Positions 5,561 through 61,578 of a stretch of DNA of 64,000 nt are shown here, in pieces. Under the pieces are notes generated by a model, which searched no databases, was not told where the DNA came from, and saw nothing but the letters and a program-made list of their open reading frames with translations. This DNA comes from an uncultured Anaerolineae bacterium (GTDB taxonomy: Bacteria > Chloroflexota > Anaerolineae > CG2-30-64-16): the NCBI GenBank assembly GCA_937124585.1, contig CAKZKT010000051.1:16398-80397 (forward strand), given 5' to 3'. Every line of letters starts with the position of its first letter. The first letter of the stretch is position 1. Both the position numbers and the translations under genes were made by a program.

Positions 5561-7496
5561 TTACTTCACGCCCGTCGGCTGGAGGCCGCCCACCCACTTG
5601 CCGGTGGTGGGGGACTGATAGCCGGTGATGACCAGGTTAAACGTGGCCCACCAGCTGACCGGCATGTTCCACGGATCCTCGGCCGAGGGGAAGCCCTTCC
5701 AGTAGGTATAGTTGAAGGGCACCAGGGCCGGGGCCTGGACGACCGGCACCACCGGCAGCTGCTCGAACCAGATGGCCATCGCCTTCTTGTACTGCTCCTT
5801 GACCTTCTCGACCTCGGTCGGCGGGGTCTTGCCCATCTCATCTACGATGGCATCGAACTCCGCGTTCTTGAAGCGGAAGGAGTTGCGCTCGTACCAGGGC
5901 GCGGGCTCGCCCAGGGGCACGTAGTTGGCGCCATGGAAGAGCCACAGGTTATCGTAGATGTAGCCGGGGCAGAACGAATGCAGCTTGAGGTCGTACTGCC
6001 CGCGCAGCAGGGCATCGGCCAGCGGGCTGCCGGTCATGGACTGGATCTTGACACCGATGCCGGCGGCGCGCAGCTGATCGGCCAGCACCGCGGACACCTT
6101 CATCTCCTCGCCCGAGTTGCTGTCCACCACATAGATCAGCTCCAGCTTCTTGCCGTCGGCGGTGGTCCAGTCGTTGCCGACCTTCTTGAGGCCGGCGGCC
6201 GCCAGGAGCTCGGCCGCTTTCTTGGTGTCGGTCGCATCGGCAGGATACTTCGCACGCAGGTCCTGGATCGCGTCGAAGTAGGGCTTCAGGCCATCGTAGA
6301 AGGGCCACACGCCCCAGGTCGGGGTGGTCGTTCCCTCATACGCCAGGTTGACGATGGCCTTGCGGTCAATCAGGTAGGAAATCGCCCAGCGCACTTCCTT
6401 TTGATCCAGCGGCGGCTTGGCGTTCTGCACCATCAGCGCCCGCGGGCAGGGATCCAGCCAGGCATAGGGCGGATCTTTGGTCCACGCGCGCAGGTTCGGA
6501 TTGCGCCGCGCGACCTCCTTGAAGGAACCGAGCGAGAGCTTTCCGATGAAGGGGGTATCAATTTCGTTGGCGGCCAGGGCCAGCGCGATGTTCGTGTCGT
6601 CGCCGATGTACTGGAAGTTGATGGTCTTGGGGGCCGGCTTGACGCCGAAGACCTTCGTCCCCCACCAGTCATCGCGTCGCTCATAGACGAACGCGGTCTC
6701 GGTGGCGCGCACGAGCTTGTACGGCCCGGTGCCAACAGGCTGCGAGTTCTTGAAGGTCAGCGGGTCCTGGCCTTCCCAGATGTGCTTCGGCAGGATGGTG
6801 ATGCCGCCCCAGATGCCCACTGCCGGGAATGCCTCGCGGATGAGATGGAAGCGCGGGTTGGGCTTTGTGAGCTCGAACTTGACGGTGGTATCGTCCACTT
6901 TCGTGGCGGCCTTCACCCAGGTGTTCGCCTCGGCCGCCCAGGTCATGCCTGGGTTCTTCTTCAGCAGCTCATAGGTGAAGACGACGTCATCGGCCGTGAA
7001 CGGCTTGCCGTCGCTCCAGGTGACGCCCTTCCGCAGGTTGACGGTGATGCTCGTGAAATCGGCGTTGTACTCGTATTTCTCCGCCAGCCAGGGGATGTAC
7101 TCGCCGGTCTGCAGGTTGTTGTAGAAGAAGTACTCGTAGATGACCTGATGGATGCCGGTTCCAGAGCGGCTGACACCCGGCGCGTAGATGTTCAGGTTGG
7201 TGGGATCGGCCACCCGGCCACCGAGCGCGACGTTGAGGGTCTCCGCGCGCGCCAATCGTTCCGGGCTGATCGGCGCGGGCGTCGGGGTCACGACCTTCTC
7301 GACGATCTTCTCGACCGGCTTTTCGACGACCTTTTCGACGACTTTCTCGACCGGTTTCTCGACGACCTTCTCGACGACCTTCTCGACCGGCTTTTCGACG
7401 ACCTTTCTCGATGACCTGTGGCGTGGGTTGTGCACAGGCCACGAGGACACTCATGATCACGCTCAGAACGAGCACGATCCACAGTTTGGTTTTCAT
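5561..7496 (-). CDS. family-5 (peptide/nickel) substrate-binding lipoprotein with an N-terminal (V/P)VEK tandem-repeat linker; reading frame interrupted by an apparent +1 insertion near 7402
   Basis: A Shine-Dalgarno AAGGAGGAGG precedes ATG 7496, which encodes signal peptide MKTKLWIVLVLSVIMSVLVAC (lipobox LVAC) then AQPTPQVIEK. The (VVEK/PVEK)n repeat and the SBP_bac_5-like body (5561-7450) lie in the +1 frame. Confidence 0.7.
7293..7413 (-). repeat. 12-nt tandem coding repeat (about 10 units, GTCGTCGAGAAG / CCGGTCGAGAAA variants) encoding (V/P)VEK
   Basis: Direct inspection of the sequence. Confidence 0.8.
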
Positions 7497-10059: not shown

Positions 10060-10134
10060 CGGGGCGTAGCGCAGTCCGGTCAGCGCGCTTGATTTGGGTT
10101 CAAGAGGTCCGGAGTTCAAATCTCCGCGCCCCGA
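10060..10134 (+). tRNA. tRNA-Pro (anticodon TGG)
   Basis: Manual cloverleaf: acceptor CGGGGCG/CGCCCCG, D arm GCGC-AGTCCGGTCA-GCGC, anticodon arm CTTGA-TTTGGGT-TCAAG, T arm CGGAG-TTCAAAT-CTCCG, discriminator A. No CCA is encoded. Confidence 0.85.
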
Positions 10135-10331: not shown

Positions 10332-12587
10332 ATGACGCTGGTCTACCTCACGGTTGCCTGGTGTGTGGGCATCTGGCTGGCCCACCAGTTCTGGACGATC
10401 GGTCTGATCGGCTGCGAGACGCCCGGCTGGGCCTTCGCCATAGCGGCGATGTGCTCTGCCGGGCTTGCTATTTTATGGCGCCGGCAGCCATCTCGCCGTT
10501 GGCCCGCTGTCTTCCTGATGTTTGCCCTCCTGGGTGCCTGGCGCTACCAGCTCCGGCCATTTGTCGTCTGTCCCTCGACTACCACATTGGCGGCTTACAA
10601 TGGCTCTGTGGCCGCGCCGACTCGCGCCGTGATCGAGGGCGTCATCGTCGGCTATCCCGATGTGCGCGATACGGCCACGATCTACCATGTGCGCGCTGAT
10701 ACCCTGATCCTTGACGGTCAGGCCCGGCCCGTGCGGGGCGATGTGCGCGTCGAGGCGCCTCGTTATCCGGTTTTGGCCTACGGCGACCGGGTTCGCGCCG
10801 GCGGTCAGCTGATCACGCCGCCTTCCTTCGACGACTTCGACTACGCTGCCTATCTGAGCATCCATGGCATCCACAGTCTGCTGCGCCGCGCGCGCCTCGA
10901 GCGGATCAGCCCGGATCACGGCCATCCGCTGTGGGCGGCCCTGTATCGGCTGCGCGCTCGCGGGGCCGCCCTGCTCAATCGCGTCCTGCCGGAGCCGACG
11001 GCCGCGCTGGCGAACGGGATGCTGCTGGGCATCGAGAGCGGCATCCCCGACGCGGTGGATGAGGCCTTCAAAGTGACCGGTACCACGCATGTCATCGTCA
11101 TCTCCGGCAGCAACATCGCGCTGCTGACGGGCGTTCTCATGGCGCTGCTGGGCCGCGGCCTGGGACGAAGCCGCGCGCTGTTTCTCGTCGCCGCTCTCGT
11201 GATGCTCTATGTCCTGCTGGTCGGCGCCGACCCGCCGGCGCTGCGGGCCGGGATCATGGGCGTGCTATATGTGATTGCCATCGCGCTGGGCCGCGTGAGC
11301 ACTGCCTACGTCTCGCTCTGCGCCTCCGCGTTGGTCATGGCCTTGCTCAACCCGCTGGCATTGTGGGACGTCGGCTTCCAGCTCAGCTTTGCGGCCACCT
11401 TGGGGCTGATCCTGTTCACGGCGCCGCTCCAGGCGCGCTGCGAGCGTTTTTGCACGCGCCGGTTTTCTCCCGAACGTGCCCGCCAGATCACCGCCCTGTT
11501 GAACGACACGCTCATCGTGACCCTGGCCGCGCAGATCCTGACCCTGCCGCTGCTCGTTTACTATTTTGGCCGCCTGTCGCTGGTGGCGTTGCTTGCCAAT
11601 TTCTTGATCCTGCCTGCCCAACCGCCCATCATGGTCGGCGGCATGGCGACTTTGGCCGTGGGCCTGATTTGGGAAACGCTCGGCCGCATCGCGGCCGTGA
11701 TCCCCTGGCTCTTCCTGACCTACACGGTCACAGTGGTGCGCGGCCTGGCGACTGTGCCGCTGGCCGCAGTGGAGACGGGCGCGCTGGGCCGCCTGCTGGC
11801 CGTGCTGTACGGCGTCGGCCTGATCGGAGGACTGGCGTGGCGCCATTGGCCGCTGCTGCGCCGGATGATGCCGGCGCCGTCGGCGGCAGGGCGCTGGCTG
11901 GCGGTGGGGGGCATCTCCGGTTGGCTGATCTTGACCGCGGTCAACCAGATTCCCGATGGCCGCCTGCACATCACGTTCATCGCCGACGCGGCCGGCGAAG
12001 CGGCATTGGTGACCACGCCGACCGGCAGACGCGTCTGGCTGTGGGATGGTCGCGGCGACGGCGCCGTCCTGGCCGCCGCGACGCGCGACCAGTTGCGAAT
12101 CGGCCAGTCGGGGGTCGGCCTGGCATTCGGGCCGGATGCCGGCCGCTATTGGCCGGCTGCGCAAGTTTTCGAGCCGGCGCAGATGCCTGCCGGCAGCCGG
12201 CTGCGCCTCGACGGAGGCGTGGAGCTGACGCGGCTAGCCGCCGGCTCGGCATGGCTGGTGCGCTATGGCCGGTTTCGCACGCTCGCGCCGGCGACGCTCG
12301 CGCCGGAGGCGCAGGCCGAACTGATGCACGGCGCGCCCGCCGATCTCGCGCTCACTTTCCTGAAGGCGCCCGGCGCCGGCACTTCCACCTGGCCGACGAC
12401 CGCCTTCCTCGCCGTGACCGCGCCGCAGATCGTCCTTTGGCCGGAAGCTGCCACCTATCCGCCCGATGTCGCCGAATGGCTGAGTGGCCTGCGCACTGCC
12501 CGTATCCCCGATGAAGGCGTAGTCGAAGTGATTACCGACGGCATGCGGCTGTGGCTGCGCCAGCGCAGCGGCGTGGTGCAGCGATAA
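10332..12587 (+). CDS. comEC: ComEC/Rec2-family DNA internalization channel protein
   Basis: DUF4131-like N-terminus, a Competence domain with TGTTHVIVISGSNIALL, many TM helices, and a C-terminal metallo-beta-lactamase-like fold (HITFIADAAGEAALVTTPTGRRVWLWDG). The start is placed at ATG 10332, after the 10260 hairpin; the ORF-track GTG 10191 extension is rejected. Confidence 0.75.
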   Translation: MTLVYLTVAWCVGIWLAHQFWTIGLIGCETPGWAFAIAAMCSAGLAILWRRQPSRRWPAVFLMFALLGAWRYQLRPFVVCPSTTTLAAYNGSVAAPTRAVIEGVIVGYPDVRDTATIYHVRADTLILDGQARPVRGDVRVEAPRYPVLAYGDRVRAGGQLITPPSFDDFDYAAYLSIHGIHSLLRRARLERISPDHGHPLWAALYRLRARGAALLNRVLPEPTAALANGMLLGIESGIPDAVDEAFKVTGTTHVIVISGSNIALLTGVLMALLGRGLGRSRALFLVAALVMLYVLLVGADPPALRAGIMGVLYVIAIALGRVSTAYVSLCASALVMALLNPLALWDVGFQLSFAATLGLILFTAPLQARCERFCTRRFSPERARQITALLNDTLIVTLAAQILTLPLLVYYFGRLSLVALLANFLILPAQPPIMVGGMATLAVGLIWETLGRIAAVIPWLFLTYTVTVVRGLATVPLAAVETGALGRLLAVLYGVGLIGGLAWRHWPLLRRMMPAPSAAGRWLAVGGISGWLILTAVNQIPDGRLHITFIADAAGEAALVTTPTGRRVWLWDGRGDGAVLAAATRDQLRIGQSGVGLAFGPDAGRYWPAAQVFEPAQMPAGSRLRLDGGVELTRLAAGSAWLVRYGRFRTLAPATLAPEAQAELMHGAPADLALTFLKAPGAGTSTWPTTAFLAVTAPQIVLWPEAATYPPDVAEWLSGLRTARIPDEGVVEVITDGMRLWLRQRSGVVQR

Positions 12588-12613: not shown

Positions 12614-12665
12614 TTGTGTGGAAGTATGATTATGCACTATAATAAATAGGTCGAGACCAGGTCTC
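12614..12665 (+). promoter_or_regulatory. Near-consensus sigma-70 promoter plus palindromic operator-like site for the RAMP operon
   Basis: TTGTGT (12614-12619), an 18-nt AT-rich spacer, then a perfect TATAAT (12638-12643). The palindrome GAGACCAGGTCTC (12653-12665) sits at the predicted +1 region. The direct repeat GTAAAC(N15)GTAAAC follows, then AGGAGG 7 nt before ATG 12718. Confidence 0.5.
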
Positions 12666-12717
12666 CCTGTAAACTTGCAGAACTCGCGTAAACAGACCTT
12701 TGAGCCAGGAGGAGAAC

Positions 12718-15700
12718 ATGATCATTCGCGGCAAACTGATCGCGGAAACGCCGATCTATCGAGGCAATGCTCGCAAGACACTCTTCACCCGTGACAGCGA
12801 TGGCACCCAGCGGCTGGTCTCGCTTGCGGGTGAGATCTCGGGAACGGCCCAGGCGCTGATGGACGCTTTCATCGGTCAGTCCCGCGATGGTCGGAACATG
12901 GGGCTATTGAATCGCGCCTGGCGCCGGCTCTACGGTGACCCGTTGCCCGATGGCCTGATCACGCGCGTCGAATGTCGGCTCCCGGAAGCAATGTACACGC
13001 AGGATCGCTTTTTCGACCTGCGCATGGGCCTGAAGTTGGACGAGGACCGTTGGGCGGCCGAGGCGAATGCCAACTACAAGATGGAGACCGTCTTCCGCCA
13101 TACCGGTTTCGACTTCAGCATGATGGTCAACGATGCCGTGCTGGAGCGCGGGGAAAACCGGGTCCGGCTCTACGCCCTGCTGGAGGAGATGGCGGCTGGT
13201 CGGTTCTGGTTTGGCGCCGGGAAGAGCAAAGGGCTGGGCCGGCTGCGGCTGGAAGCCGATCTGAGGAGCCTCACGCCCGCCGCGCCCGCTTTCCGTCCCG
13301 AAGTCAACCATTTGAAGATCGTGCTCCGCTTCAACGCCGATAACCCGGTGCTGGTCGGCTGGAATTGGGGCAAGGTAGATCCGGCCGTGCCGGCCTTCGC
13401 TGCCATCGAGGGCCGGTTGCTCATCGCGGCCATGCGCGACATCCCCGATCCGATCCGCCAGCGGCTCGAGCTCGTCATCGGCGGGCCCATCCTCAGCCCG
13501 GAAGACTGGAAACGCCGGCTGGCCGAGTATCTGCCGCGCGCCATCGCGCTCTGGCTTCAGGAGCGATCGAGCAGCCAGTCTGAAGTGTGGATTCTGCACG
13601 AAAACGCGCTGGCCAGGCTGGCCAAAGGCAAATACCCGCTGTCGCAGAAAGCGCTCGACGCGGTCAAGCCGCTCTGCGAGCAGCCATTTCCCGATGCCGC
13701 AGCCGCAGAAGCGGCCCTCAGGGAGCGCATCGGCAACCAGGCCAAACGCGTCCTGGAGATCATGGAACGGCAGCAGCAGGCCGGCCACCAACTTGACATG
13801 GCCGCCTGGCACGAGGTGAGCGATAGCCTGGGCCTGGATGCCACGCCGGTCGAGACGCTGGCGGCGCAGCTGGACGATGAAACGGCCCTCACCCAGACCC
13901 TCGCCGAAGCGTGTCGGCCGGTCATGGCGCGGCTCTATCAGCAGGTAGACCAGCAGGTGGATCTCCTGCGCAGCGACGCCTGGGTGGATGCCGAGATCGC
14001 CAATCGAGAGGTACATCTCAAGATCAAACAGATGCTGCTGGAGGGCAAGATCAGCGAGGCGCAATGGATGAACCGCAATCAGCCGCCCGCAGGGATCAGC
14101 CCGGCGGCCTGGCGCAGTTTCCTGGAAGAACATAGCCGGGTGCGCTATCAGCACATCATCCATCCGGCGAACCTGCGCAAGAGCATCACCAACGACCGCA
14201 ACTTCATCGCCTTCCTGCAGAGCTACCGGGCGAAGGCGCGCCAGGAACTTTCGCAGCCGTACCATGTGGACTTCCGCAGCGGCGGCCCGTTCAATCGCGA
14301 TGTTGCACGCAAATACGGCAAGCCCTACGACACCATGTTCATGCGCATGTTGACCTGGAGCCCGGCCGCGCGCGAGGGCGCGTGGGAGATCTATATCCCC
14401 GGCAGCACCATCAAGGGCGCGTTTCGCAAGCGCGCCTCGCAGGTGCTGAAGACGCTCTGGGGCGAATCGCCGCGCGTGACCGAGATTTTGGATTATCTGT
14501 TCGGCCGCCAGGGACAGCGCGGGGCCATCTACTTCTCCGATGCCTATCTGACCGATCCCACGCAGCCCGAGGAGGTCTGGTGTTCGATGGACGGCGTGCG
14601 CATGGATCCGGCGACGGCTCGCCCTGTGGAGACTGCCAAGCACGATTACCTGTTCGCCTATGGCGATCAGCTTAACTTCCAGCTGCAACTGGAGTTGCAA
14701 GACCTCACCGAGCGCGATCGGCCCGCGCTGGCCGTCCTGATCAACCTGCTGAAAGATTTCCAGCAGGGCGACATCGTCCTGGGCGGCGAGAAGACCGTCG
14801 GGTTCGGCTGGGTGAAGGCCCGCGTCAGCGAGATCACCTGGCTGACGGCCGATCCGGCCAACAAGCTGTTGGCCGATATCCTGCCCGAACGGCCCTTGAC
14901 CCGTGTCGGGCCCTGGCATCAGCTGACGTTGCGCGACGAAGAGGCGGCCGAGGTAATGTGGCGCGCGCCACTGCCCGCGGCCACCCGGGTCGAGGTCCGG
15001 CCGCCACGTGCTCGGGAAGGCTTCATCTCGCACCGGGCCTTCGGCGGCTACTCCGGCATATTGGCCGTGGAGGTCGAAGTGTTGACCCCTCTCCATGTTC
15101 GGGAGAGCGGCGAGCCATCGCGGCGCGCGGTCCTGGCCGATGGCAACGTGAACGGCTGGGACTGCTTCTCGTTCGCGCCGGCCGAGGCTGCTCTGCGGCC
15201 AGATGCCCGGCTCTACGCGCTGCCCAGCCGCAGCCTGAAGGGGTTGCTGCGCCACATCTACGCGGTCGCCAGCGACGCGAAGGGAGAGAGCCCGGCCCTG
15301 GATCGTCTGAACCCGGCCGACAGCCTGTTCGGATGGGTGGGTGCCGGCCCGAACCAGGCCATCATGGGGCGGCTGGCGTTTGGCTTTGCGCCGTTTGACG
15401 AGACGCCGGAGCTGGCCTGGTTCAAAGTGCCCTACCCCTACGGCGGCTGGATCTGCGAGAACGGCGTCTGGCGCCAGAGTACGACCAAAACGGTGCCGAT
15501 GTTCCAGATAGACAAGACCTGGCGGCTCTTCTTCCACGCGCCGCTCGCGCCGATCGTGAAGCGCCTGGAAGATTTCACGCCCGATACCGTGCAGGCCAGC
15601 TATACACGCGCGATCTTGCCGGGCGCAAAGGCGCGCTTCGACATTCGTTTCTGGAATCTGGAACAGGAAGAGCTGCAGCGCCTCATCTGGTGCATCGAGC

Positions 15701-15933
15701 TGGAGGAGGGCCTGGCGCACAAGTTGGGCCATCACCGCTATGTCGGCTTCGGCAGCGTGCGCCTGCGTATCCTGCCCGAGAGCGTGCTGTGGGACTGGAC
15801 GAAGCGCTACACCGATCAGGATGAGGGACGCCTGCCGCTGCGCGTTGCAGAGTGGTTCGAGCCCAAAGTGGTGGCGCACCGCGCGGCGCTGCTGAAGGCG
15901 CTTGATGCGCGCGTGCTGTCCGGCAATCGCTGA
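12718..15933 (+). CDS. Giant multi-RAMP fusion protein: three Cas7-like RAMP domains plus a ~300-aa alpha-helical insert (candidate single-subunit type III-like effector)
   Basis: Domain 1 (aa 1-185): beta1 MIIRGKLIAETPIYRG, glycine-rich loop WFGAGKSKGLGRLRLE (nt ~13210-13254). Domain 2 (aa ~540-715): IPGSTIKGAFRKRASQ (nt ~14394-14441), LFGRQGQRGAIYFSDAYL, glycine-rich loop GGEKTVGFGWVKA (~14785-14823). Domain 3 (aa ~785-1050): ILAVEVEVLTPLHV, LPSRSLKGLLRH (~15222-15257), LFGWVGAGPNQAIMGRLAFGFAPF, glycine-rich loop GHHRYVGFGSVRLRI. The start is ATG 12718 rather than the ORF-track TTG 12700. Confidence 0.85.
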   Translation: MIIRGKLIAETPIYRGNARKTLFTRDSDGTQRLVSLAGEISGTAQALMDAFIGQSRDGRNMGLLNRAWRRLYGDPLPDGLITRVECRLPEAMYTQDRFFDLRMGLKLDEDRWAAEANANYKMETVFRHTGFDFSMMVNDAVLERGENRVRLYALLEEMAAGRFWFGAGKSKGLGRLRLEADLRSLTPAAPAFRPEVNHLKIVLRFNADNPVLVGWNWGKVDPAVPAFAAIEGRLLIAAMRDIPDPIRQRLELVIGGPILSPEDWKRRLAEYLPRAIALWLQERSSSQSEVWILHENALARLAKGKYPLSQKALDAVKPLCEQPFPDAAAAEAALRERIGNQAKRVLEIMERQQQAGHQLDMAAWHEVSDSLGLDATPVETLAAQLDDETALTQTLAEACRPVMARLYQQVDQQVDLLRSDAWVDAEIANREVHLKIKQMLLEGKISEAQWMNRNQPPAGISPAAWRSFLEEHSRVRYQHIIHPANLRKSITNDRNFIAFLQSYRAKARQELSQPYHVDFRSGGPFNRDVARKYGKPYDTMFMRMLTWSPAAREGAWEIYIPGSTIKGAFRKRASQVLKTLWGESPRVTEILDYLFGRQGQRGAIYFSDAYLTDPTQPEEVWCSMDGVRMDPATARPVETAKHDYLFAYGDQLNFQLQLELQDLTERDRPALAVLINLLKDFQQGDIVLGGEKTVGFGWVKARVSEITWLTADPANKLLADILPERPLTRVGPWHQLTLRDEEAAEVMWRAPLPAATRVEVRPPRAREGFISHRAFGGYSGILAVEVEVLTPLHVRESGEPSRRAVLADGNVNGWDCFSFAPAEAALRPDARLYALPSRSLKGLLRHIYAVASDAKGESPALDRLNPADSLFGWVGAGPNQAIMGRLAFGFAPFDETPELAWFKVPYPYGGWICENGVWRQSTTKTVPMFQIDKTWRLFFHAPLAPIVKRLEDFTPDTVQASYTRAILPGAKARFDIRFWNLEQEELQRLIWCIELEEGLAHKLGHHRYVGFGSVRLRILPESVLWDWTKRYTDQDEGRLPLRVAEWFEPKVVAHRAALLKALDARVLSGNR

Positions 15934-15938
15934 CCGGT

Positions 15939-16811
15939 ATGCTGACACATTTCGACTGGCTACGGCGCAGCTGCAGCGGTCCGGAATTGTTGGCGACGCT
16001 CCAATACCTGGAGACCAACCCCGACCTGCCGACGGAAGACAGCGAGATGGGACCCCCGCCTTCGGCCGGGACGGCACCGTGCGCGCGCTGCTGGATCTAT
16101 CCGCGCGCGGTGGGACGCTATTGTGTCACCTGTCACGCCATCCTCGATCGTGCCTGGCGCCTGCGTGATGTCATCCCCCGGACGATCGTGATCTGGGGCT
16201 TCGTCAATCGCGTGCCCAAGGCCCGGCCGGGCCGCCAGAGCTTTGCCGGCAGCAACATCCTGGGGCAATACGTTCACGACGAGCGGCGTTTTCTGCTGAT
16301 GTTGCCGCACGACGAACTGAAGTCCTGGTTGCACGACCTGGCGCTCTACTACGGGATCGAGTTGAAGGGGCTTTTGCAGATCTTTCCGACCACGGGCGGC
16401 CGGGCGGCCCACATGGGCGACCTGCTGGTGCGCATGGTTCACCATGAAGCGCGCTTCCCGCCCGACAAGCTGCGCATTCGCTTCTTCGCCAAACTGGACC
16501 AGGTCTTCCATCCGCGACCGTACGAAAAGGAGGGCGTCCTGACCTTCGAGGCGGCCGAATTCCTGCGCACCCTGGAGCTGGCGACCGTCTTCCGCACTCT
16601 GCTGCGGCCGGATGAGCAGAAAACTCTTTACAAGCTGCTGCACATGACCGACTCCGCGCAGTCGCAGCTCTATTGGGGCCGCTTTTGGGGCCTGCTCAGC
16701 CAGGAGGCGCGCGATCTGATCAATGCCTGGGGCATCCGAACCTGGACGGAGTATCAGATCAGCCTGCTGTACGAGTTAGTGGACTATGTTGCCTTTGATC
16801 AGCCAGGTTAA
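15939..16811 (+). CDS. Hypothetical protein with an N-terminal CxxC...CxxC zinc-ribbon, translationally coupled to the RAMP gene
   Basis: CARCWIYPRAVGRYCVTCH. The ATG lies 5 nt after the upstream stop. No recognisable catalytic motifs. Confidence 0.6.
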   Translation: MLTHFDWLRRSCSGPELLATLQYLETNPDLPTEDSEMGPPPSAGTAPCARCWIYPRAVGRYCVTCHAILDRAWRLRDVIPRTIVIWGFVNRVPKARPGRQSFAGSNILGQYVHDERRFLLMLPHDELKSWLHDLALYYGIELKGLLQIFPTTGGRAAHMGDLLVRMVHHEARFPPDKLRIRFFAKLDQVFHPRPYEKEGVLTFEAAEFLRTLELATVFRTLLRPDEQKTLYKLLHMTDSAQSQLYWGRFWGLLSQEARDLINAWGIRTWTEYQISLLYELVDYVAFDQPG

Positions 16812-17826
16812 TCTGATCCGCTACCTGATCGTCTGGCGGGTGAACAGTTCGCTGGTGCACTTGTCGCGCTGTCTCGCCACCGATGTCTCGCGCACGCTCG
16901 CCATGTTGATCGCTGAGCGTCTGCCGACGCAGCAGGCGCGGCCGTGGCGCAAGACGGTGCAGCTTTGGAACAGCATCGCGGGCGATGCGGGCGCAGCCGA
17001 CGACGGCGAGGCGCAGGCGTCACCGAAACAACCGGCCTCTCAGGCGCCGGCCGATGAAGAGGCATTCTGGCCGGCCTGGCCGATCGAAGCAGTCGTGTGG
17101 CCATATCCCGGCAAGCGCATCTATGGCCAGGGCGAACCGCTCATATGGGAGCTGAAGCTGCTCGGCAACGACGCCGACCACGGCCTGTTTTTGGAGGTGC
17201 TGTTGCCGGCGATGGAAGCGGCGGCTGTCACCTCCGACGAGCGGTGGCATCGGTCGCGCACGTTGTGGGGGCGGTTCGACATTGACAGCATCTACGTCAG
17301 CCGCGGGCCGCGCTGGGAGCCGATTGCGCGCGGCGGTCGGCTCGACCTGAGCTGCCGCGTGACGCCCGTGCAGTGGGCCGAGGGGTTCGGCGAAGAGAGG
17401 CAGGAAAAGCCCCTACGGCGTCGCCTCATCTGGCTCACTCCGTTCGACCTGCCGGTGCTCGCGACGGCCGCCGACGCTCAGGACGCGACACGGCCGGCGC
17501 GACCGGCCGTGCCGGCGCTGGCCGACATCCTGGAGGCGCTGATGGAGCGGGTGGCCGGCCTGGCGGCGGGCAAACGCGCCCGCGCCGAACAGGCCTGGGC
17601 GCTCCTCTCGGCCGAAGAGCGGGCCGCCTTGCAGGAGGCTTGCGCAGCGGGCCCAGTGGTGAGGGCAGAATTGCAACGCGCCGATTGGGCCTGGCCCGGC
17701 CGCTGGATCGGCGAGCAGACCTTCCGCCAGATCGCGGCCGTCCTGTGGCCCTATTTGGATCTGGCCTCTATCGTGCACATCGGCCGCCACACCCATTTCG
17801 GCTGTGGCGCTTTCACGTTGGTCTAG
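16786..17826 (+). CDS. Cas6-like RAMP protein (putative endoribonuclease) with a C-terminal glycine-rich loop
   Basis: C-terminal ...VHIGRHTHFGCGAFTLV (nt ~17773-17823) fits the Cas6 G-phi-G-R-x-T-S-x-G-phi-G loop. N-terminal beta-alpha pattern IRYLIVWRVNSSLVHLSRCLATDVSRTLAMLIAERL. Overlaps the upstream gene by 26 nt. Confidence 0.6.
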   Translation: MLPLISQVNLIRYLIVWRVNSSLVHLSRCLATDVSRTLAMLIAERLPTQQARPWRKTVQLWNSIAGDAGAADDGEAQASPKQPASQAPADEEAFWPAWPIEAVVWPYPGKRIYGQGEPLIWELKLLGNDADHGLFLEVLLPAMEAAAVTSDERWHRSRTLWGRFDIDSIYVSRGPRWEPIARGGRLDLSCRVTPVQWAEGFGEERQEKPLRRRLIWLTPFDLPVLATAADAQDATRPARPAVPALADILEALMERVAGLAAGKRARAEQAWALLSAEERAALQEACAAGPVVRAELQRADWAWPGRWIGEQTFRQIAAVLWPYLDLASIVHIGRHTHFGCGAFTLV

Positions 17827-19166: not shown

Positions 19167-19760
19167 TCAGTCGGCCGCCGCGGCCGGATTCGCCGTCTGT
19201 TCAGCCGGCGCGGCCGGCACTGCCTCCAGCACACAGGCCGCGCCACGTTGCAGCGCGGCTTTATTGCTTTCCAGGAAACGGCGCTGCCGGCCCGGCAGAT
19301 GGCGGTCGAGTGCGGTCTCGACCGCGGCCAGCGGCAGGATGCCGGTGGCCGCCAGATAGCCGCCCAGCAGCACCACGTTGGCCTGGCGCACGTTGCCCAG
19401 CGCCTCGGCGATGTCGTTGGCCGGAATGGGCACGTAGCGGATATCCGCGCGGCCGGGCCGCCTGTCAATGAGCGAGCTGTTGTAGACCAGCACGCCACCG
19501 TGCTTGACCAGCGGCTCATACTTTTCGAAGGAGGGCAGATTCAACGCGATGACGCTGGCCGGCCGGCGCACTAGCGGCGACCCGATCGGCTCATCGGCGA
19601 TGACCACGGTGCAGTGGGCGGTGCCCCCGCGCATCTCCGGGCCATACGAAGGAATCCAGGTGACGTGCAGGCCGCAATCCAATGCGGCATAGGCCAGCAG
19701 CTGGCCGGCAAACAGCGCGCCCTGCCCGCCAAAACCAGAGAAGATGATTTCCTCGTGCAT
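19167..19760 (-). CDS. korC: 2-oxoacid:ferredoxin oxidoreductase gamma subunit
   Basis: [16 protein letters not shown]... The start sits at the internal ATG behind a GGAGAGA RBS. Confidence 0.8.
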
Positions 19761-24464: not shown

Positions 24465-24601
24465 GTCGCCCACGTGCCAGGCACTCGGCAAGATGCCTGG
24501 CACGGGAGTGGTCGCCACGTGCCAGGCACTCGGCAAGATGCCTGGCACGGGAGTGGTCGCCCACGTGCCAGGCACTCGGCAAGATGCCTGGCACGGGAGT
24601 C
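24465..24601. repeat. 3x tandem ~46-nt palindromic unit (GTCGCCCACGTGCCAGGCACTCGGCAAGATGCCTGGCACGGGAGTG) immediately 3' of rex
   Basis: Units at 24465-24510, 24511-24555 and 24556-24601. Each holds the 10-bp inverted repeat GTGCCAGGCA/TGCCTGGCAC. There are no unique spacers. Confidence 0.85.

Positions 24602-61506: not shown

Positions 61507-61578
<72 letters not shown>

Follow-up and report, generated by a model that had tools for sequence, protein, structure and literature searches.

A predicted Cas6-type RNA-processing nuclease encoded by the last gene of a subtype III-I CRISPR-Cas operon in an uncultured Anaerolineae bacterium

Introduction

Subtype III-I was added to the CRISPR (clustered regularly interspaced short palindromic repeats)-Cas systems when their classification was updated in 2025 (Makarova et al., Nat Microbiol 2025; PMC12669027). 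According to the passages of this update that deal with type III systems, two proteins define III-I, a Cas10 that has diverged extremely and has no N-terminal cyclase domain, and Cas7-11i, an effector that is made up of three Cas7 domains in fusion and of Cas11, is missing the Cas7 domain found at the N-terminus of Cas7-11e and evolved independently out of a III-D variant (PMC12669027). The subtype is predicted there to cut RNA, and its hosts are mostly Chloroflexota and Thermodesulfobacteriota. The same passages describe that in several type III subtypes most loci lack arrays of their own, and it is suggested that III-G recruits its CRISPR RNAs (crRNAs) from other loci in trans; neither the Cas6 of III-I nor the presence of arrays at III-I loci is discussed in them (PMC12669027). 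A search of the literature yielded no other paper on subtype III-I and no biochemical study of the Cas6i family. The gene described here, cas6i, is situated in a 64-kb stretch of DNA (contig CAKZKT010000051.1) from an uncultured Anaerolineae bacterium. This whole stretch is referred to as the window, and positions are given in its numbering. Judged from its sequence, cas6i almost certainly codes for a member of the Cas6-type family of CRISPR RNA-processing nucleases, namely the Cas6 of subtype III-I.

Family assignment of the gene product

The open reading frame (ORF) at 16786-17826 on the plus strand encodes a protein of 346 amino acids that ends in VHIGRHTHFGCGAFTLV (nucleotides (nt) 17773-17823), the codon of V330 being at 17773-17775 and the stop codon at 17824-17826. 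DNA and translation agree exactly with the coordinates and the C-terminal peptide given in an earlier reading of the window, made from the letters and the ORFs alone (the sequence-only reading). In that reading the gene was proposed to encode a Cas6-like RNase or, equally well, a Cas5-like subunit, and a profile search was put forward as a check.

In such searches the product matched NCBIfam NF049959 ('type III-I CRISPR precrRNA processing endoribonuclease Cas6', 'CRISPR_3_Cas6i') with 278.4 bits, the cut-off being 160, and Pfam PF10040 (CRISPR_Cas6) with 29.4 bits over residues 242-342, where the gathering cut-off is 25. Three PADLOC Cas6 models matched as well (best E = 1e-10, residues 108-345). 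The NF049959 model has 207 positions and spans residues 4-222 (window 16786-17451) although the homologs are full length (317-402 amino acids). The C-terminal domain with its glycine-rich loop falls outside this model and is recognised by PF10040 (window 17509-17811). The proposed membership of the Cas6 family was borne out by all these models.

Both signature genes of subtype III-I, cas7-11i and a reduced cas10i, were found directly upstream of cas6i on the same strand. The cas7-11i product matched NCBIfam NF049957 ('Cas7-11i gRAMP effector') with 1764.6 bits (cut-off 800) and Pfam RAMPs with E = 6e-21. The cas10i product scored 404.2 bits against NCBIfam NF049958 ('Cas10i'; cut-off 175) and matched no Pfam family. 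The profile matches of the three products imply that they are encoded by a complete subtype III-I effector operon. Compared with the Cas6 of subtype III-I as represented by NF049959, the window protein has the same partners, Cas7-11i and Cas10i, and the same host range, and nothing essential differs. The subtype has been classified (Makarova et al., 2025) and the protein named by the curated NCBI model, so that both are already known. The sequence-only reading was right about the Cas6 identity of the third gene and missed that the operon belongs to a CRISPR-Cas subtype already classified.

The glycine-rich loop and conserved residues of the N-terminal domain

Homologs were collected with a word-indexed search that returned 591 relatives; the best 120 were almost all full length and 46-69% identical in local alignment. 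One homolog, present in several public assemblies, was identical to the cas6i product. When 1.84 billion cluster representatives were searched exhaustively with a profile, only 135 clusters were retrieved, 94 of them at E <= 1e-30, which indicates that the Cas6i family is small and sharply bounded. Conservation was determined in an alignment of 121 sequences, to which the figures below refer, and a wider check was made by adding relatives of 18-25% identity. At least 98% conservation was found for 59 residues.

The glycine-rich loop H331-I-G-R-H-T-H-F-G-C-G341 (17776..17808, plus strand) connects the last helix to the last strand and has the consensus H-x-G-[KR]-x-T-H-F-G-C-G. G333, H337, G339, C340 and G341 were conserved in 100% of the sequences, T336 in 99% and H331 in 98%. 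Variable positions were those after G333, occupied by K or R and then by Q or H, and the F, which was present in 83%. The first position of the loop is a His, in contrast to the Gly of the Cas6 consensus G-h-G-x5-G-h-G. With the relatives of 18-25% identity included, the invariant columns were reduced to R255, G309, G333, G339 and G341, and H331 was still present in more than 90%. Because the loop glycines survive at this distance, no feature of the family is more durable than the loop, which is what one expects of a Cas6. The Cas6-type loop noticed at the C-terminus in the sequence-only reading was confirmed by its conservation and by the PF10040 score; absence of the loop from homologs had been named there as a counter-indication, and it proved to be their most conserved feature.

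Catalytic residues of Cas6 are located in the N-terminal domain, where they face the RNA, and are commonly a histidine, with a tyrosine or a lysine; some Cas6 enzymes have no catalytic histidine. H132 (codon 17179..17181, plus strand), part of the motif A-D-H-G at the N-terminal end of helix alpha2, is the sole invariant histidine of the N-terminal domain (100%). Among the relatives of 18-25% identity it was kept in several and lost in others. In the turn between beta2 and beta3, the motif Y107-P-G-K110 (17104..17115, plus strand) has Y107, P108 and K110 conserved in at least 98% of the sequences, all three being, like H132, invariant; its residues are candidates for the active site or for RNA binding.

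A predicted Cas6-like fold

An AlphaFold2 model was made from 40 aligned sequences (mean predicted local distance difference test (pLDDT) 86.1, predicted template modelling score (pTM) 0.85) and its secondary structure was assigned with DSSP. The model shows a duplicated ferredoxin/RNA-recognition motif (RRM) fold of two beta-alpha-beta-beta-alpha-beta units. The N-terminal ferredoxin/RRM-like domain (residues ~10-182; 16813..17331, plus strand) contains strands (E) and helices (H) in the order E10-19, H30-45, H48-68, E102-107, E118-126, H132-148, E164-173 and E176-182, and the C-terminal ferredoxin/RRM-like domain (residues ~213-346; 17422..17823, plus strand) contains E213-220, H245-261, H276-288, E291-298, E307-313, H318-330 and E343-345. 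Residues 331-341, the glycine-rich loop, connect helix 318-330 with strand 343-345. Between alpha1 and beta2 the model has a variable insertion of low confidence (residues ~69-100; 16990..17085, plus strand) with a pLDDT below 50 at residues 69-77 and a mean of 48-51 for the blocks within 71-90. Its length and sequence differ among homologs. The strand 10-19 and the helix 30-45 that follows it agree with the ferredoxin-like beta1-alpha1 pattern that had been read from the N-terminus, and both domains of the duplicated fold, which was to be looked for according to the same reading, are present.

The Cas5-like alternative was not supported. No Cas5-family profile matched the cas6i product, Cas5 subunits were not its closest structural neighbours, and the scores of Cas5-type RAMP subunits (Csm4, Cmr3) were about half of those of Cas6. 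Cas6 is thus favoured over Cas5 by the profiles as well as by the predicted structure. The canonical Cas6 proteins of solved structure (S. thermophilus 6fjw, S. solfataricus 3zfv/4ill, T. thermophilus 4c8y/4c98, P. furiosus 3i4h/3pkm) are only 14-18% identical to the window protein, which differs from them in being about 100 residues longer, in its long helix alpha1 followed by the variable disordered insertion, and in having no CRISPR array next to its gene. The invariant H132, Y107 and K110, the loop H-x-G-[KR]-x-T-H-F-G-C-G and the confident assignment of the fold to Cas6 and not to Cas5 are leads for a first biochemistry of III-I.

Organization of the operon

The three genes are closely packed on the plus strand, cas6i being the last, in keeping with its earlier description as the third gene of an operon. 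The first, cas7-11i (12718..15933, plus strand), encodes the fused type III-I gRAMP effector of 1071 amino acids from the ATG at 12718; public gene calls also give 1071 amino acids, whereas the automated ORF list starts the gene at the TTG at 12700. It is followed by cas10i (15939..16811, plus strand), which encodes a strongly reduced subtype III-I Cas10 of 290 amino acids, and by cas6i (16786..17826, plus strand; 346 amino acids), the ATG of which lies 26 nt inside the 3' end of cas10i. In this layout cas6i is co-transcribed with the III-I effector genes and probably co-translated with them too. Downstream, the end of a convergent aminotransferase gene touches the stop codon of cas6i. Upstream, a ComEC gene ends at 12587 and leaves a gap of 130 nt before cas7-11i. 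Within this gap a TATAAT (12638..12643, plus strand), which lies 74 nt ahead of the start codon of cas7-11i, was read from the DNA as the putative -10 box of a promoter belonging to the operon, and a full -35/-10 pair was not called at this position by a consensus scan.

For comparison 160 related loci were examined (designated by L-numbers), 80 of them taken from reference genomes and 80 from metagenomes; some occur in both sets. In 151 of them cas10i was found directly upstream of the cas6i homolog, mostly with a complete cas7-11i before it, and the overlap of cas10i and cas6i recurred. Six of the others were cut off at cas6i, and the remaining three carry cas6i alone among housekeeping genes (L067 2896-3945, L082 4527-5549 and L092 5967-6962). 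The products of these solo genes scored 283-310 bits against NF049959, and with neither cas7-11i nor cas10i upstream their neighbours encode xanthine dehydrogenase subunits, RimO, polyprenyl synthase, glucan phosphorylase and an SDR oxidoreductase. Clustering of the flanking ORFs of the related loci gave no shared accessory or adaptation gene, only housekeeping families, each in at most 11 loci. According to the host records the family is spread patchily across Chloroflexota, Desulfobacterales, KSB1, Gemmatimonas and Rhodocyclaceae.

The leaders upstream of cas7-11i contained, at a position in the related loci that matches the TATAAT of the window, an enriched promoter-like pair, TTGACC(A) ... 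TGTACAAT / TGGTATACT. Enrichment was limited to these promoter-like hexamers, and the leaders yielded no conserved RNA motif. A leader motif was for that reason rejected as a ligand of Cas6i.

Repeats were observed in some of these leaders. In one clade (L010, L011, L021, L023, L035, L041, L047, L126) the approximately 150 nt upstream of cas7-11i have the promoter-like TTGAC...TGTACAAT, followed by GGTC-rich decamers and then by five to nine tandem GACC-rich decamers that reach the ribosome-binding site; the two kinds of decamer would pair as a long imperfect hairpin in the 5' untranslated region of cas7-11i. Other short tandem repeats occupy the leader position in L043, L072, L074 and L160. 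The leader in the window has GGTCGAGACCAGGTCTCC alone.

Processing of CRISPR RNA in trans as the probable function

The III-E effector Cas7-11e processes its own pre-crRNA (the crRNA precursor) by means of its N-terminal Cas7 domain and is not known to need a separate Cas6. Cas7-11i is likewise a single fused multi-Cas7 effector that is predicted to cut RNA, but the window effector matched the III-E model only weakly (62.5 bits, cut-off 700) and, unlike III-E, the window system encodes a separate Cas6. The presence of this gene makes sense because Cas7-11i is without the N-terminal Cas7 domain, the processing domain in III-E.

It is quite likely that Cas6i processes CRISPR repeat RNA from arrays elsewhere in the genome for the use of Cas7-11i and Cas10i, although this processing in trans is less certain than the family membership. 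Made from one operon with a putative promoter of its own, Cas6i would be produced together with Cas7-11i and the reduced large subunit Cas10i. The repeat RNA, delivered as pre-crRNA by an array at another place in the genome, would be gripped by the C-terminal glycine-rich loop and the groove between the two ferredoxin-like domains and cut by residues of the N-terminal domain, for which H132 and/or Y107 and K110 are the candidates. The unit crRNAs released in this way would be loaded on Cas7-11i/Cas10i and guide the cleavage of RNA. Since there is no array at the locus, the pre-crRNA must in this scheme come from elsewhere in the genome.

Several results weigh against array processing. The window did not contain a CRISPR array as judged by Tandem Repeats Finder, a direct-repeat search and a k-mer chain detector that did find a synthetic five-repeat array used as a control. 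A scan of the window with Rfam, including the CRISPR direct-repeat families, matched two tRNAs only. Assemblies of the same genome, which continue past the window by ~7.4 kb and 9 kb (about 16 kb together), held neither an array nor a cas gene there, the 1.90 Mb of the 160 related loci held no CRISPR array, and cas1, cas2 or any other cas gene was absent from the annotated neighbours. An adjacent array, which is usual and not obligatory in the Cas6 superfamily, is hence lacking at the locus and at the 160 related loci, and neither a substrate RNA nor a candidate repeat emerged from these searches. With respect to the protein, no sequence-level match to any solved Cas6 structure was obtained, by which such a link was discarded as a means of mapping the catalytic histidine. 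Moreover, the canonical place for a catalytic histidine in Cas6, which some Cas6 enzymes have just after helix alpha1, is taken up by the variable disordered insertion.

That no repeat array is nearby had already been stated in the sequence-only reading, and the repeat tools, the detector and Rfam agree with it. The surroundings in the window consist of housekeeping genes, as determined with Pfam for the large ORFs and from public gene calls for the remainder. The absence of an array beside the operon in any of the 160 loci, in spite of the dedicated Cas6 that is always present, makes the source of the guide RNA a testable question.

The five detector hits in the related loci were inspected and were not arrays, but a coding acidic repeat (L052), palindromes resembling repetitive extragenic palindromic (REP) elements (L009), HEAT repeats (L135), simple repeats (L143) and a palindromic element in two copies (L029). 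A two-copy search for mini-arrays in the related loci gave nothing consistent. About 20 of the roughly 77 genome-derived contigs stop less than 1 kb upstream of cas7-11i (among them L007, L013, L015, L028, L029, L043, L048, L065, L072, L074, L075 and L078), whereas only three or four end within the 4-kb stretch of cas7-11i and cas10i. Arrays hidden at these breaks were considered and rejected, as the contig ends hold simple or palindromic repeats and no CRISPR repeats; probably it is these repeats that break the assemblies upstream of cas7-11i.

One repeated element does occur in the window. At 24465-24600, in the spacer between a CBS-domain gene and a Rex-like gene, there are three tandem units of 45-46 nt with identical linkers. 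Each unit forms a 10-bp hairpin, GTGCCAGGCA / TGCCTGGCAC, with a 10-nt loop, and the fold is very stable, at -100 kcal/mol (z = -8). As identical linkers mean that there are no spacers, the element was rejected as a CRISPR array; it looks like a REP-like element. Three copies are present in the window, and a second assembly of this genome has four. A related species, L170, has the operon too, but its syntenic spacer (19339-19591) is free of the tandem hairpin. The sequence-only reading had suggested GTGCCAGGCAC hairpins as the substrate of the nuclease. This idea was not upheld, the hairpins being confined to one intergenic site of the window, variable in copy number and missing from the syntenic spacer of L170.

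Alternative explanations

A different, rather unlikely explanation is that Cas6i serves chiefly as a stoichiometric subunit of the effector and not as a processing enzyme with turnover; it would remain bound to the guide and partly replace the missing Cas5 in binding the crRNA handle and docking Cas10i, with or without a single cleavage. This would account for the lack of a cas5 gene and for the invariant three-gene operon, and it is close in spirit to the 'Cas5-like subunit' of the sequence-only reading. The three loci with a solo cas6i and the clearly Cas6-like fold argue against it.

About equally doubtful is the possibility that III-I modules are stand-alone units without arrays that are stably inherited among housekeeping genes, Cas6i processing a guide that derives not from a conventional CRISPR array linked with the module but from a non-CRISPR host transcript or from the array of an unrelated system. 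If this were true, III-I would be an RNA-targeting device with a fixed guide or one that scavenges its guides.

Still less probable is a takeover of the module for a function of the host, in which Cas6i cuts a structured RNA of non-CRISPR origin and the effector uses a fixed guide encoded in the genome. What speaks for it is that neither an array nor an adaptation gene was found near any of the 160 loci, that the family has very sharp bounds and strong conservation, and that the operon lies among housekeeping genes. A relative with a Cas6i of 58% identity has the same downstream genes as the window (aminotransferase, 2-oxoacid:ferredoxin oxidoreductase genes, radical SAM, CBS and Rex) and different upstream genes, which suggests long vertical inheritance at one site. 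A host RNA as the ligand is made less likely by the leaders, in which no conserved RNA motif beyond a promoter was found, and by the tandem hairpin, which the relative does not have in its syntenic spacer. In addition, the patchy taxonomic spread fits a mobile defence module, and the passages on type III systems in the classification update describe most loci of several subtypes as having no arrays of their own and suggest crRNAs in trans for III-G (PMC12669027). That cas6i is a decaying remnant without current function, left after the loss of the array, would explain the lack of an array and of adaptation genes at the locus and is nevertheless hardly credible, given that several independent assemblies contain the same, intact ORF, that conservation reaches at least 98% for 59 residues in the 121 homologs of 46-69% identity, and that none of the three genes is broken and each exceeds its family cut-off by far.

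Additional observations

In L021 (4527-5723) and some nine further loci a gene that by eye resembles RtcA (RNA 3'-terminal phosphate cyclase) precedes cas7-11i by ~110-140 nt on the same strand. These loci also have ribosomal protein L9, ComF-like and hibernation-factor-like neighbours, and the linkage may be simple synteny within one clade. In L171 (5754-9122; VFSW01000168.1) the cas7-11i region has been called as three genes of 384, 237 and 500 amino acids, and tblastn aligned the whole window protein across them. Frameshifts, sequencing errors or decay may be responsible for this split. Elsewhere in the window, tRNA genes are present at 10060-10134, immediately upstream of the ComEC gene next to the CRISPR-Cas operon, and at 61507-61578. 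A tandem repeat of 12/36 nt at 7290-7417 belongs to the 5' end of a minus-strand gene for a solute-binding protein, in which it encodes a repeated (V)VEKPVEK.
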